Part shown: piece after piece, positions 1 through 4,383 of the stretch
Numbering within the stretch: position 1 is the stretch's first letter
Layout of the letters: each line of letters opens with the position of its first letter
Source: Escherichia phage alpha3
Sequence record: NC_001330.1
Direction: 5' to 3' (one strand)
Length of the DNA: 6,087 bases
Made by a program: the position numbers and the translations under genes
The notes under the pieces: model-generated
Told to the model about the DNA's origin: nothing
Database searches by the model: none
What the model saw: only the letters and a program-made list of their open reading frames with translations

Positions 1-26
1 TTGTTGACATTCCCTAAACCCTTATG

Positions 27-65
27 AGACTCTTGCTTCAACGAAACGAAGTAGGAGTCTTTTTT
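27..65 (+). terminator. Candidate stem-loop plus T-run immediately downstream of gene H (across the circular junction)
   Basis: Seen in sequence: 27-39 (agactcttgcttc) pairs with 48-60 (gaagtaggagtct), a 13-bp stem including 2 G-U pairs, with an 8-nt loop (40-47) followed by TTTTT (61-65). The stem is AU-rich, so it is probably weak. The right arm contains the AGGAG ribosome-binding site of the ORF starting at 66. Confidence 0.3.
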
Positions 66-209
66 ATGAAACCAGCTCATCGCCTCTATCATCCTGTGCT
101 TGGTTCTTGGTTGTTTAAGTGCCCCGTTTATGTTCGTTATGAGTCCCTTCATCACGGTCGCCTCATTAAGGTTCGTGCTGTTCGTGACCTTTCCCGCGTC
201 AGCAGTTGA
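66..209 (+). CDS. Hypothetical small basic protein (47 aa; 61 aa if the upstream in-frame ATG at 24 is used), H-A region ORF1
   Basis: ATG at 66 preceded by AGGAG (53-57) with an 8-nt spacer. Product MKPAHRLYHPVLGSWLFKCPVYVRYESLHHGRLIKVRAVRDLSRVSS is rich in R/K/H. About half the codons end in T (hand count ~25/47), matching the bias of the known genes. Stop TGA 207-209 overlaps the TTG at 206 of the next ORF. No homolog recognised. Confidence 0.4.
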   Translation: MKPAHRLYHPVLGSWLFKCPVYVRYESLHHGRLIKVRAVRDLSRVSS

Positions 210-433
210 TTGCCAATCCTAAAAATTGCTTTGACGTTGTCATTGCTGAGATTGACGTTACTCACCTTTCTGTCACTTGGTATGATTTTGAAGCTGAAGA
301 GTATGCTGAGTGTGATTCCGGCACTATGGAGCTTGTTGTTTCTCAGGTAAATTCTGGCGAGGTTATTCGCTCATCTGAAGACCTGTTTGTTGATGTTGAT
401 GATATGGAATGGCCTTATGAAATTGCGGAGTAA
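206..433 (+). CDS. Hypothetical acidic protein (75 aa from TTG 206; 35 aa if it starts at ATG 326), H-A region ORF2
   Basis: Open frame from TTG 206 (TTGA overlap with the ORF1 stop) to TAA 431-433. Product is strongly acidic (many D/E, e.g. DLFVDVDDMEWPYEIAE). Frame-specific T-ending codons are about 41/75 by hand count, versus about 10/41 in the +1 frame of the same stretch. No clear ribosome-binding site before 206 or 326, so the start is uncertain and translation may be coupled to ORF1. Confidence 0.4.
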   Translation: MIANPKNCFDVVIAEIDVTHLSVTWYDFEAEEYAECDSGTMELVVSQVNSGEVIRSSEDLFVDVDDMEWPYEIAE

Positions 434-436
434 GTC

Positions 437-526
437 ATGGAAACTGTTATCGGAAAATTTATTGCTCTGGCTATTGTTGCTCTTATGCTGTATGGAATTG
501 CCTGTTTGATTCGGAGGTTTCCGTGA
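437..526 (+). CDS. Hypothetical 29-aa hydrophobic peptide (single predicted transmembrane helix), H-A region ORF3
   Basis: ATG 437 preceded by GGAG (427-430) with a 6-nt spacer, 3 nt after the ORF2 stop. Product METVIGKFIALAIVALMLYGIACLIRRFP, stop TGA 524-526. About 15/29 codons end in T. Too short for the supplied ORF track. No homolog recognised. Confidence 0.35.
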   Translation: METVIGKFIALAIVALMLYGIACLIRRFP

Positions 527-699
527 AATATTTTAGTTTGGTAGATGAACATTATGCTTACTGCCCTGATACAAGGATTTTGCACATTACTCGTAGTCGT
601 GTTTCTGACCCTCGGTATGAGCGTCGCTTTCTTACTGATGAGGAGCATTTTGCACTTTTGGATTGGTTAAAAAATCGCCCAACTTACATTAATTCTTGA
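523..699 (+). CDS. Hypothetical 58-aa protein with GTG start, H-A region ORF4
   Basis: GTG 523-525 overlaps the ORF3 stop (GTGA) and is preceded by GGAGG (513-517) with a 5-nt spacer. Product (M)KYFSLVDEHYAYCPDTRILHITRSRVSDPRYERRFLTDEEHFALLDWLKNRPTYINS. About 33/58 codons end in T. Stop TGA 697-699 lies inside the -35 hexamer of the gene A promoter. Not in the supplied ORF track. Confidence 0.4.
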   Translation: MKYFSLVDEHYAYCPDTRILHITRSRVSDPRYERRFLTDEEHFALLDWLKNRPTYINS

Positions 700-725
700 C
701 AGACCTTTAAAATACCCTCTATATT
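696..725 (+). promoter_or_regulatory. Sigma70-type promoter for gene A (pA analog)
   Basis: Perfect -35 TTGACA (696-701), 18-nt spacer, -10 TATATT (720-725), about 35 nt upstream of the A start codon. Position matches pA in the phiX174 H-A spacer. Predicted start site around 732-733. Confidence 0.6.
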
Positions 726-755
726 GCCCTCATAGTTTCACTACGAGGGCTTTTT
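726..755 (+). terminator. Rho-independent terminator-like hairpin in the H-A spacer / gene A leader (TH analog)
   Basis: GCCCTC (726-731) pairs with GAGGGC (745-750); an inner 3-bp helix 733-735/741-743 is possible; followed by TTTTT (751-755). The right arm contains the gene A ribosome-binding site GAGGG (745-749). Confidence 0.5.
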
Positions 756-758
756 CGC

Positions 759-2243
759 ATGGCTACTGAAATCTTCTCTGATGTTGTTAAGTCTGTTTGG
801 TCGCACGCTACGGCTAAGCATGCTCATCTTCGTATGGCTGTTCAGGTTGATAATCGTAGTCGCCTCCTTTCTGACCTCGTTTATCAGTTGGAAAAACGCC
901 TTTCTGAAGAGACTCATTTGGATGATGAGACTCTTGCCATTTATGAATCTCAGACTGCCCTTCTGGAAGACCATATGGCACTGGTTCGGAAGTGTGCTGC
1001 CCAACTTGATAATAGTAACACTATAGACCACCGTACCCCTTTGGATGCCGAATGTGTTTTCCTGTTTGAAATGATTTGCCCGGGTGTTCGCTACGGTAAA
1101 ACGTTAAATTCTCTTTGGACTAAGTATGTTGTTCAATGGCCTGAGAAGTTAATCCGTCAGGAGTTAGACATGGTTAAGCCTTTATCCTTTAAGGATGAGG
1201 TTGCCAAGTACATGGAGAAGATGCAGGAAAAAACACGCAAAAATCGCATGACTCAGAAAGTTATTAATGAGATGCGTATTGCTCACCAAAAAGGCTGGTT
1301 CTTCGTATTTGATACGTTAACCCTTGCTGATGACCGTTTGCAGGCTTTTAATGAAAACCCCAATGCTCTTCGTGATTATTTCAGGACTGTTGGTCGAGCT
1401 GTTCTGCGCGCTGAAGGTCGTTCGGTCAAGGATTCCTACAACGACTGCTATCGCTATCTTTGTGTGCCGGAGTTTGGAGGTCAGCACGGCCGTCTTCATT
1501 GGCACGTTGTGCATATGGTGCGGACTCTTCCTTTGGGAAGTCATGACCCTAATTTCGGTCGCAAGGTACGTAATTATCGCCAGATTAACTCGTTCCGTGG
1601 CATGTGGCCTTATGGCTTCACGCAACCGATAGCTGTTCGCTATCAACATGACGCTTATTCCCGCAAAGGTTGGCTGTGGCCTGTTGACAAAACAGGAAAA
1701 GCAATGCAGAGTAAGCCGTATCAGGCGGTCGCATGGTATGTGACCAAGTATGTAGCCAAGCAATCTGACCAGCGTCAGAAAGCTATTACCGAGAGACAAA
1801 AGAAATGCAAGAATCCATTAATGGCAATCTGTCTGAAGAAAGAATTTCGGGTACGCAGCAGTCGGAAACTCGGAATGGAGCTCCCGTCAATGGCTCATCT
1901 GAGCAACAAGGTACTTCTGGAACTGAGCCGAATCAGCTTCGATTCCAGTCCTCTGTATCAGATAGTGAAAGAGAACGCCAAAAAGCAATTGACCTTGAAC
2001 ATCGGCGCGCTGCCTTTGCACGTCATTTTGGATGTGCGCCCGGAAGTGAGAAGCATGTTGAAAACTATTCGTCGTTTGATGAAAAAGACACCCGAGTTCA
2101 ATTGGCAGAGTTCTATCGCTTCAATGACGGTCACTTTAAAAAATGGGGATATTTCTGATGAAGCACGTCAATACATTATTGATGCAGGAATTACGCCTAC
2201 TGATTTGCGAGCTAAAGCGACTCAGACTTTCGGCGGTAAGTGA
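759..2243 (+). CDS. A: Replication initiation protein A (rolling-circle nickase/ligase), 494 aa
   Basis: Strong similarity to phiX174 protein A as recalled (FVFDTLTLADDRL, NPNALRDYFR, CVPEFG..GRLHWH, and the active-site tyrosine pair in YVTKYVAK). GAGGG ribosome-binding site 9 nt upstream. The in-frame stop at 708-710 excludes a longer N-terminus. Contains gene B, the (+) origin and the start of K. Confidence 0.93.
   Translation: MATEIFSDVVKSVWSHATAKHAHLRMAVQVDNRSRLLSDLVYQLEKRLSEETHLDDETLAIYESQTALLEDHMALVRKCAAQLDNSNTIDHRTPLDAECVFLFEMICPGVRYGKTLNSLWTKYVVQWPEKLIRQELDMVKPLSFKDEVAKYMEKMQEKTRKNRMTQKVINEMRIAHQKGWFFVFDTLTLADDRLQAFNENPNALRDYFRTVGRAVLRAEGRSVKDSYNDCYRYLCVPEFGGQHGRLHWHVVHMVRTLPLGSHDPNFGRKVRNYRQINSFRGMWPYGFTQPIAVRYQHDAYSRKGWLWPVDKTGKAMQSKPYQAVAWYVTKYVAKQSDQRQKAITERQKKCKNPLMAICLKKEFRVRSSRKLGMELPSMAHLSNKVLLELSRISFDSSPLYQIVKENAKKQLTLNIGALPLHVILDVRPEVRSMLKTIRRLMKKTPEFNWQSSIASMTVTLKNGDISDEARQYIIDAGITPTDLRAKATQTFGGK
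1002..1031 (+). other. Viral-strand (+) origin of rolling-circle replication, 30-bp protein A recognition/nick site
   Basis: CAACTTGATAATAGTAACACTATAGACCAC matches the phiX174 origin (CAACTTG/ATATTAATAACACTATAGACCAC as I recall it) apart from a few changes in the AT-rich centre. Predicted nick between G1008 and A1009. It encodes AQLDNSNTIDH of protein A. Confidence 0.8.
1221..2243 (+). CDS. A*: A* (internal in-frame restart product of gene A); start codon uncertain (ATG 1212, 1221 or 1248)
   Basis: By alignment the phiX174 A* start (MKSRRGFAIQ) falls on EKTRKNRMTQ here. The nearest in-frame ATG is 1221, with GGAG at 1214-1217 but only a 3-nt spacer. ATG 1248 has no ribosome-binding site. Confidence 0.3.
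   Translation: MQEKTRKNRMTQKVINEMRIAHQKGWFFVFDTLTLADDRLQAFNENPNALRDYFRTVGRAVLRAEGRSVKDSYNDCYRYLCVPEFGGQHGRLHWHVVHMVRTLPLGSHDPNFGRKVRNYRQINSFRGMWPYGFTQPIAVRYQHDAYSRKGWLWPVDKTGKAMQSKPYQAVAWYVTKYVAKQSDQRQKAITERQKKCKNPLMAICLKKEFRVRSSRKLGMELPSMAHLSNKVLLELSRISFDSSPLYQIVKENAKKQLTLNIGALPLHVILDVRPEVRSMLKTIRRLMKKTPEFNWQSSIASMTVTLKNGDISDEARQYIIDAGITPTDLRAKATQTFGGK
1805..2158 (+). CDS. B: Internal scaffolding protein B, 117 aa, encoded inside gene A in another frame
   Basis: Acidic/Q-rich N-terminus and a C-terminus QLAEFYRFNDGHFKKWGYF that matches phiX174 B (PAEFYRFHDAEVNTFGYF). Stop TGA 2156-2158 overlaps the K start. Confidence 0.9.
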   Translation: MQESINGNLSEERISGTQQSETRNGAPVNGSSEQQGTSGTEPNQLRFQSSVSDSERERQKAIDLEHRRAAFARHFGCAPGSEKHVENYSSFDEKDTRVQLAEFYRFNDGHFKKWGYF

Positions 2244-3035: not shown

Positions 3036-3054
3036 GGGCCCTTCGGGGCCTTTT
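3036..3054 (+). terminator. J-F intergenic hairpin with UUCG tetraloop plus T-run (TJ-like terminator / RNA stability element)
   Basis: GGCCC (3037-3041), TTCG loop, GGGCC (3046-3050), with a flanking G-U pair 3036/3051, then TTTT (3051-3054). Confidence 0.5.
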
Positions 3055-3066
3055 AAGGAAATTCAA

Positions 3067-4362
3067 ATGTCTAATGTACAAACTTCCGCTGAACGTGAAA
3101 TTGTTGACCTCTCTCATCTTGCCTTTGACTGTGGCATGCTTGGTCGTCTGAAGACTGTTTCATGGACTCCTGTTATCGCTGGCGATTCCTTTGAGCTTGA
3201 TGCTGTTGGTGCTTTGCGTCTTTCCCCTCTGCGTCGTGGTTTAGCTATTGATTCTAAGGTTGATTTTTTCACCTTCTACATTCCGCATCGTCATGTTTAT
3301 GGCGACCAGTGGATTCAGTTTATGCGTGATGGTGTTAATGCTCAGCCTCTGCCTTCTGTTACTTGCAATCGCTATCCGGACCATGCTGGTTATGTAGGTA
3401 CTATTGTTCCTGCAAATAACCGTATTCCTAAGTTTTTGCATCAGAGCTATCTGAACATTTACAATAACTATTTCCGTGCCCCGTGGATGCCTGAGCGTAC
3501 CGAGGCCAACCCGTCTAATCTTAATGAGGATGATGCTCGTTATCGCTTCCGTTGCTGCCACCTTAAAAATATTTGGTCTGCTCCGCTGCCTCCGGAAACC
3601 AAATTGGCTGAAGAAATGGGTATTGAAAGCAATTCCATTGATATTATGGGTTTGCAAGCCGCTTATGCGCAGCTTCACACTGAGCAGGAGCGTACTTACT
3701 TTATGCAGCGTTACCGTGATGTTATCTCCAGCTTTGGCGGTTCAACCTCCTATGATGCCGATAACCGACCGTTGCTTGTTATGCACACCGACTTCTGGGC
3801 TTCCGGTTACGACGTTGACGGTACCGACCAATCTTCCCTTGGACAATTCTCTGGTCGAGTCCAGCAGACGTTTAAACACTCAGTGCCGCGATTCTTCGTG
3901 CCTGAGCATGGTGTCATGATGACTTTGGCTCTGATTCGCTTCCCGCCTATCAGTCCGTTGGAGCACCATTATCTTGCTGGTAAGTCTCAGTTAACCTATA
4001 CCGACCTTGCTGGCGACCCGGCTCTGATTGGTAACTTGCCTCCTCGCGAGATTAGTTATCGAGATCTGTTCCGTGATGGTCGTTCTGGTATTAAGATTAA
4101 AGTTGCCGAGTCTATTTGGTATCGTACTCATCCTGATTACGTTAACTTTAAGTATCATGATTTGCATGGATTCCCGTTCCTTGATGATGCGCCTGGTACA
4201 TCTACTGGTGATAATCTTCAGGAAGCTATCCTTGTTCGTCATCAGGACTATGATGCTTGCTTCCAGTCTCAGCAGTTGCTACAGTGGAACAAACAGGCTC
4301 GCTATAACGTTAGTGTTTATCGCCATATGCCTACTGTACGTGATTCCATTATGACCTCTTAA
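3067..4362 (+). CDS. F: Major capsid protein F, 431 aa
   Basis: Extensive similarity to phiX174 F (MSN.QT.AER...DLSHL.F..G..GRL.T...TPVIAGDSFE.DAVGALRLSPLRRGLAIDS.VD.FTFY.PHRHVYG...QLLQWN...RDSIMTS). AAGGA (3055-3059) with a 7-nt spacer. The upstream in-frame ATG 3034 used by the track lies inside the hairpin and is not the start. Confidence 0.95.
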   Translation: MSNVQTSAEREIVDLSHLAFDCGMLGRLKTVSWTPVIAGDSFELDAVGALRLSPLRRGLAIDSKVDFFTFYIPHRHVYGDQWIQFMRDGVNAQPLPSVTCNRYPDHAGYVGTIVPANNRIPKFLHQSYLNIYNNYFRAPWMPERTEANPSNLNEDDARYRFRCCHLKNIWSAPLPPETKLAEEMGIESNSIDIMGLQAAYAQLHTEQERTYFMQRYRDVISSFGGSTSYDADNRPLLVMHTDFWASGYDVDGTDQSSLGQFSGRVQQTFKHSVPRFFVPEHGVMMTLALIRFPPISPLEHHYLAGKSQLTYTDLAGDPALIGNLPPREISYRDLFRDGRSGIKIKVAESIWYRTHPDYVNFKYHDLHGFPFLDDAPGTSTGDNLQEAILVRHQDYDACFQSQQLLQWNKQARYNVSVYRHMPTVRDSIMTS

Positions 4363-4367
4363 TTCAT

Positions 4368-4383
4368 GGGCCTTCGGGCCTTT
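4368..4383 (+). terminator. F-G intergenic hairpin with UUCG tetraloop plus T-run (TF-like)
   Basis: GGCC (4369-4372), TTCG loop, GGCC (4377-4380), then TTT. Near-duplicate of the J-F module. Confidence 0.45.

Follow-up and report, generated by a model that had tools for sequence, protein, structure and literature searches.

The DNA immediately upstream of gene A in the genome of coliphage alpha3 raises the question of how a phage can express its replication initiator independently of the transcription arriving from the genes that precede it. Only small amounts of the A and A* proteins are required, and their overexpression is toxic. The stretch analysed here, hereafter called the window (6,087 nucleotides, nt), corresponds to the whole alpha3 genome (family Microviridae, subfamily Bullavirinae, genus Alphatrevirus), linearised directly 3' of the stop codon of gene H; agreement is 100% with M25640 and 99.7% with DQ085810.2, the resequenced alpha3 genome. 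The element in question occupies the final 63 nt upstream of gene A, the preceding gene being H in both phiX174 and G4. Positions 696-761 most probably represent the alpha3 ortholog of the pA-TH element of phiX174, i.e., an intrinsic terminator that shares sequence with a sigma-70 promoter. The alpha3 element is of a kind already known, published for phiX174 as the overlapping pA-TH, and its layout is real, conserved and not new. Its constituents and the gene that follows are listed below.

696-701, plus strand: -35 hexamer of the promoter pA, TTGACA, invariant in alpha3-like genomes except phiK (TTGGCA)
702-719, plus strand: pA spacer, 18 nt
720-725, plus strand: -10 hexamer of pA, TATATT, kept in the alpha3 clade, with TATAGT in ID32
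726-731, plus strand: left (5') arm of the hairpin, GCCCTC, with clade variants restricted to C>T and retaining G.U pairs
732, plus strand: predicted pA start, A732, 7 nt past the -10 and the positional equivalent of phiX174 3962
733-743, plus strand: inner stem UAGU/ACUA of 4 base pairs (bp) with the loop UUC, where 733-736 pairs with 740-743; present in pA transcripts and weak alone
745-750, plus strand: right (3') arm, GAGGGC, containing the Shine-Dalgarno (SD) sequence GAGG (745-748); invariant in the clade apart from NC35 (GAGGAC)
751-755, plus strand: T5 tract, the U-tract of the intrinsic terminator, adjoining the stem and followed by CGC and then the ATG at 759
759-2243, plus strand: gene A (replication initiator), start codon ATG 759-761, annotated as gpA in DQ085810

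The coordinates first proposed in the sequence-only reading, namely those of the -10, the hairpin arms, the T5 tract and the ribosome-binding site, all proved correct on checking against the sequence. The promoter pA scores 11/12 and is the top entry of the promoter list for the window; in our own scan, it was the only match of at least 10/12 on either strand, where matches of at least 11/12 are expected by chance about 0.10 times per window (first-order Markov shuffles). The element sits in the gap between the stop codon of the upstream open reading frame (ORF), which encodes 58 amino acids (aa) and spans 523-699, and the ATG of gene A at 759, the stop codon itself (TGA, 697-699) falling within the -35 of pA. 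Position 725 closes the -10 and position 726 opens the stem, and the 5' arm of the hairpin doubles as the discriminator of pA (-6 to -1), which is GC-rich with a C at -5 in alpha3, phiX174 and G4. Given the contacts of sigma region 1.2 with the discriminator, a sequence of this type predicts short-lived open complexes and possibly sensitivity to guanosine tetraphosphate (ppGpp) and DksA.

Respective to the terminator, the hairpin 726-750 has a minimum free energy of -14.2 kcal/mol, with five of the six outer pairs being G-C and the mismatch A732/C744 separating the outer 6-bp stem from the inner 4-bp stem. Its stability is well beyond that of shuffled sequences (z of -5.15 in a 41-nt frame and -6.81 in a 31-nt frame; 0/200 shuffles fold as well). 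GAGG at 745-748 is the sole SD-like sequence 5' of the gene A start codon and is located in the 3' arm, followed by the T-run and the ATG, just as the 3' stem of phiX174 contains GGAGG (3969-3973). A stable GC-rich stem-loop ending at 750 and a U-tract beginning at 751 give the form of an intrinsic terminator, with a U-tract of only 5 nt. A simple terminator scan of the window, requiring an uninterrupted stem and a loop of 3-8 nt, did not list this hairpin, because the interior mismatch makes the loop of the outer stem 13 nt long. No match was found in a scan of positions 1-900 against Rfam (E<=1), and longer folds gave just the single hairpin, with no alternative antiterminator pairing; as regards attenuators and riboswitch leaders, there is thus neither a mutually exclusive antiterminator fold nor a recognised aptamer.

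The closest precedent is the H-A region of phiX174, for which an overlapping promoter and terminator, pA-TH, is stated explicitly (Logel & Jaschke, 2020). In that phage, the element comprises TTGACA (3927-3932), TTTCAT (3950-3955), the stem GCCTCCAA/TTGGAGGC (3956-3974), T6 and the ATG at 3981, and its RefSeq record places the start of transcription at 3962, the base directly following GCCTCC, 7 nt past the -10 and within the 5' arm (3956-3963). Sanger et al., in 1977, are reportedly an earlier source on this H-A intergenic region. RNA sequencing (RNA-seq) of phiX174 gave a net 0.29-fold change, i.e., a drop, in transcription across pA-TH, which its authors describe as an element that "resets" the transcriptional current before gene A. 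A saturation-mutagenesis preprint from 2026 gives the same -35 and -10 coordinates and has the 3' stem of TH overlapping the gene A ribosome-binding site, and the hairpin score of TH is the best among the four phiX174 terminators. Alpha3 and phiX174 share the succession of TTGACA, a spacer of 17-18 nt, a -10, an abutting GC-rich hairpin with the gene A SD in its 3' arm, a T-run and the ATG, and the phiX174 start falls just past a 6-nt 5' arm, where A732 is its alpha3 equivalent by position. Differences concern (i) the stem sequence, altered by two compensatory pairs, (ii) the -10, near consensus in alpha3 (TATATT) but TTTCAT with a TRTG extension in phiX174, (iii) the stem architecture, interrupted in alpha3 (6+4 bp) and of 8 bp in phiX174, (iv) the tract after the stem, T5 and CGC against T6, and (v) the neighbourhood, since the alpha3 element follows the 58-aa ORF, 696 nt past H, whereas that of phiX174 follows H itself. 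The alpha3 element possesses every sequence-level feature by which the pA-TH family is recognised.

As for how the element would operate, the start site and termination at TH are established in phiX174 alone, and the mechanism in alpha3 is deduced by analogy. Transcripts from pA had been predicted in the sequence-only reading to begin around 732-733, which agrees with A732, a position assigned in alpha3 by orthology with the annotated phiX174 start. Judging from phiX174 and from the standard spacing between the -10 and +1, the polymerase would start at about A732, just beyond the 5' arm, and pA RNA would therefore be unable to form the hairpin; it would escape termination at T5 and expose its SD in an unstructured leader. 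The leaders initiated at pA are indeed predicted to be less structured than shuffled sequences (z of +1.71 in alpha3 and +1.17 in phiX174). Polymerases reading through from upstream, along the mRNAs of H and of three small ORFs of the H-A region, would on the contrary transcribe both arms and form the hairpin of -14 kcal/mol beside the U-tract. A fraction of these transcripts would terminate there, as demonstrated for TH in phiX174, and on thermodynamic grounds those escaping would keep their SD buried in the stem and should therefore translate gene A poorly. Masking of the ribosome-binding site in read-through RNA, another element of the first proposal, is supported thermodynamically by the computed cost of opening the SD, as obtained from constrained partition functions: in alpha3, it amounts to 12.9-13.8 kcal/mol when the left arm is present and to 1.8 kcal/mol in an RNA starting at 732. 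Across five lineages, this cost ranges from 9.4 to 13.8 kcal/mol in hairpin-containing RNA vs. 1.8 to 4.6 kcal/mol in RNA starting past the left arm, with gaps of about 6-12 kcal/mol in phiX174, G4, ID32 and a divergent lineage. The net result would be that pA, rather than the strong upstream transcription of capsid genes, mainly determines how much gene A is expressed, keeping the toxic A and A* low. The core logic of insulating gene A from upstream RNA, as originally put forward, is thus retained by orthology with phiX174; the part referring to "late" transcription is not, since microviruses use constitutive promoters and leaky terminators without early or late classes. Nor does a late operon end at this hairpin, since a stronger terminator-like hairpin (26-61) and then three conserved small ORFs are found upstream instead.

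The arrangement is widely conserved. The -10 ends 0-1 nt 5' of the left arm in 11 of 12 alpha3-like genomes (the exception being NC35), in 6 phiX174-like and 4 G4-like genomes and in 1 divergent microvirus, a contig with an A protein of just 52% identity to that of G4. The order of -35, -10, hairpin, SD within the 3' arm, T-run and ATG is identical in all Bullavirinae compared but NC35, that is, in three genera and one divergent lineage; the phiX-like sequences were drawn from GenBank phage records, and a search of IMG/VR for phiX174-type A proteins returned zero loci. At the H-A junction of G4, for instance, TTGACT (4-9), TAATAT (28-33), GCCTCC/GGAGGC (34-53), T4 and the ATG (59) follow one another as in alpha3. 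Given this conservation, the abutment of the -10 and the left arm is not due to chance. The T-run varies in length, from T4 to T6 in alpha3 relatives and from T3 to T4 in G4-like phages. Between genera, the stem changes from GCCTCC/GGAGGC (phiX174, G4) to GCCCTC/GAGGGC (alpha3), i.e., by two compensatory pairs with the SD kept in both, which would support selection on pairing, as would the higher predicted cost of opening the SD in read-through RNA than in pA RNA. Within the alpha3 clade, the outer stem varies solely by C>U, yielding two G.U variants, and the inner pairs 732/744 and 733/743 are altered on both sides. Wherever a G.U pair occurs, the A.C mismatch is closed as well, and these two changes together hold the fold energy within -13.8 to -15.8 kcal/mol.

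The exception, phage NC35, carries in its region 700-730 a 29-nt deletion equivalent to alpha3 703-731, which takes away spacer, -10 and left arm, while the T-run is retained, as is the SD within the altered right arm. Neither a promoter-like site nor a residual hairpin was found in the H-A region of NC35. This joint loss fits the proposed mechanism, because an SD that is no longer masked can be served by read-through RNA, from which gene A would be expressed, a combination predicted to be viable.

Several observations nonetheless weigh against ascribing an important regulatory role to this element. NC35 shows, in the same stroke, that the whole unit of promoter and left arm is dispensable. 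The short U-tract, T5 then CGC, makes termination probably partial, and the hairpin 26-61 may already remove most H transcripts. Covariation within the alpha3 clade is weak, the score being reached by 17/500 shuffles and the other measures being indistinguishable from shuffles. In the saturation mutagenesis of phiX174, 13% of the 5'-stem mutations were detrimental vs. 63% of the 3'-stem mutations, an asymmetry that the ribosome-binding site alone explains, as if this site and not the pairing dominated fitness in the laboratory; the fitness value of pairing looks small.

Some of these observations lend themselves to an explanation by passive compaction, where the hairpin would be selected only as a terminator or stabiliser of the 3' end of the upstream mRNA and its 3' arm only as a ribosome-binding site, with the abutment and the masking of the SD arising as by-products of packing signals into a gap of 59 nt, devoid of regulatory consequence for gene A. 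Mostly neutral mutations in the 5' stem and detrimental ones in the 3' stem of phiX174 speak in its favour, as does the viability of NC35 without left arm and -10; moreover, phiX174 terminators are known mRNA stability elements, and hairpins of the GCCTCC...GGAGGC type followed by a T-run are generic phage terminators, with an ATG directly after in some unrelated contigs. Yet, the abutment of 0-1 nt survives the turnover of spacer, loop and stem sequences in four lineages, whereas the hairpin would be free to sit anywhere in the gap were upstream termination the sole need, and pA transcripts containing the hairpin would terminate themselves. Passive compaction thus appears improbable, albeit the best placed of the alternatives to a pA-TH ortholog.

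A still less probable explanation is that the hairpin acts at the DNA level, in the packaged or infecting single-stranded (+) DNA, i.e., in replication, packaging or the so-called reduction or superinfection inhibition, an effect mapped to the H-A junction, and not in RNA. As single-stranded DNA, the hairpin is stable indeed (-7.7 to -8.6 kcal/mol, z of about -5), and superinfecting phage is inhibited by a 495-nt phiX174 fragment that runs from the end of H across the H-A gap into the start of A; the determinants of the reduction effect identified so far map, though, to the coding part of H. Chemostat evolution also repeatedly hits the H-A gap of phiX174: parallel substitutions were reported there in excess over its 64 nt, and evolved isolates exhibit, within 3950-3970, insertions of 1-2 nt in the TH loop (AAATCTTG+TG; AAA>AAAA) as well as a T>C change of the -10 (TTTCAT>TCTCAT). 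At high multiplicity of infection, selection thus acts on the phiX174 element. The adjoining T-run and the presence of the SD, in contrast, are features that belong to the RNA level, and the RNA-seq drop in phiX174 is real; the C>T variants of the stem give G.U pairs in RNA but weaker G.T pairs in DNA; and in alpha3, where the H-A region extends over 758 nt, the hairpin stays with pA and gene A, not with H.

The reading as a self-attenuator, in which pA would start upstream of 726 or another promoter would be the real one and the hairpin would damp the mRNA of gene A itself, agrees with the scarcity and instability of the gene A mRNA in phiX174 and with the low requirement for A and A* and their toxicity in excess, but was rejected as barely conceivable on promoter geometry and on the phiX174 start site, since a -10 ending at 725 and a sigma-70 start 6-8 nt downstream cannot precede 726, the annotated phiX174 start falls within the 5' arm, no other promoter-like site exists on the plus strand of window positions 1-760, and neither an antiterminator pairing nor an Rfam family was found.

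Taken as a pA-TH ortholog, the alpha3 element can be set beside other systems. Fold-back inhibition in IS10 brings about a comparable shielding of the transposase gene from impinging transcription. In IS200, a terminator and stem-loops occluding the ribosome-binding site are described as a shield against impinging transcription. As proposed for alpha3, RNA entering these insertion sequences is terminated, or its ribosome-binding site buried, by a segment located upstream, and the RNA from their own promoter starts in or after this segment and is translatable; unlike in alpha3, where one hairpin would serve both purposes and its 5' arm is the promoter discriminator, they belong to another biological context and exhibit no sequence homology with the phage element. 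In leader attenuators and riboswitch expression platforms, the SD is likewise held inside a terminator hairpin, but in these a signal chooses between alternative folds of one transcript, whereas the outcome in alpha3 would be set by which promoter made the RNA. The location of an SD inside the 3' arm of a terminator is not unique to microviruses. A collection scan with GCCTCC-N(3-13)-GGAGGCTTTT retrieved at least 120 unrelated phage terminators and, among the matches listed, 0 new microvirus lineages. Of note, this stem motif with a T-run is generic in phage contigs, and several unrelated contigs of IMG/VR have an ATG a few bases downstream.

Further upstream, the region between H and A in alpha3 comprises a second module of similar layout and a block of small genes, as follows.

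4-68, plus strand: module 1, directly after the H stop codon, with TTGACA (4-9), 16 nt, GAGACT (26-31), the hairpin 26-61, T6 and the ATG at 66
66-699, plus strand: three conserved small ORFs, of 122 aa (ATG 66 to about 434, split in the window), 29 aa (hydrophobic, 437-526) and 58 aa (523-699)

The hairpin of module 1 is of 14 bp (-20.1 kcal/mol, z of -4.96), its 5' arm is overlapped by GAGACT, its 3' arm contains the SD AGGAG (53-57), and the ATG at 66 opens a conserved ORF. Module 1 is conserved in the alpha3 clade, with a degraded T-run in WA13, ID32, ID21 and NC28, and in phiK it reads TTGACA-16-TAGACT, with a promoter-like score of 10/12. It is the first barrier for transcripts leaving gene H. 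Relative to the H stop codon, the -35 of G4 and the TTGACA of module 1 occupy equivalent positions; G4 has one module, whereas alpha3-like phages have two (4-68 and 696-761), on either side of some 630 nt of additional genes. When module 1 (4-68) was compared with module 2 (690-761) for paralogy, a few pairs reached p of about 0.002 and most were not significant, and a repeat finder run on the window did not pair the two modules. It is possible, if rather unlikely, that the promoter, terminator and SD-masking hairpin form a reusable cassette carried twice, each block being translated only from RNA of its own promoter, with the 630-nt block acquired together with such a cassette or through its duplication and the GC-rich discriminator being perhaps sensitive to ppGpp/DksA or to the initiating nucleoside triphosphate.

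The read-through RNAs reaching the hairpin 726-750 are the mRNAs of the three small ORFs. Variation is in clear excess at third codon positions in the 122-aa and 58-aa ORFs and not in the 29-aa ORF, which is conserved in sequence. The small ORFs are given as hypothetical proteins in phage Lilleven, the records of alpha3 and phiK carry no annotation for them, and a PHROG search with them returned zero hits. Within 190-210, the window reads CCC (C-run at about 193-196) where DQ085810.2 reads CCCC, which splits the 122-aa ORF into 66-209 and 206-433; this ORF is intact in 12 of 13 other alpha3-like records, the version in St-1 being shorter (94 aa), and the CCC/CCCC difference probably reflects an error made when alpha3 was originally sequenced.

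Elsewhere in the window, the promoter-like sequence TTGACG-17-TATCTT (2445-2473), probably pD, is found just 5' of gene D. Two short hairpins of the form GGCC(C)-UUCG-(G)GGCC, each with a T-run behind it, are located in the J-F gap (3037-3054) and in the F-G gap (4369-4383), and are probably the equivalents of TJ and TF.

The idea that gene A is uncoupled from upstream transcription is already in the phiX174 literature. What is added here is (i) the layout across three genera with compensatory changes in the stem, (ii) a difference of about 10 kcal/mol predicted for SD accessibility in read-through vs. pA RNA, (iii) the natural joint deletion of the -10 and left arm in NC35, and (iv) a second, similar module in alpha3-like phages. 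While opening no new question, these elements are useful for the annotation of alpha3-like genomes as well as for refactoring and synthetic-phage work. For the biology of the phage, an ortholog of pA-TH at this position would explain how a virus without regulators uncouples a toxic, low-copy replication protein from heavy transcription of the capsid genes on a circular template.

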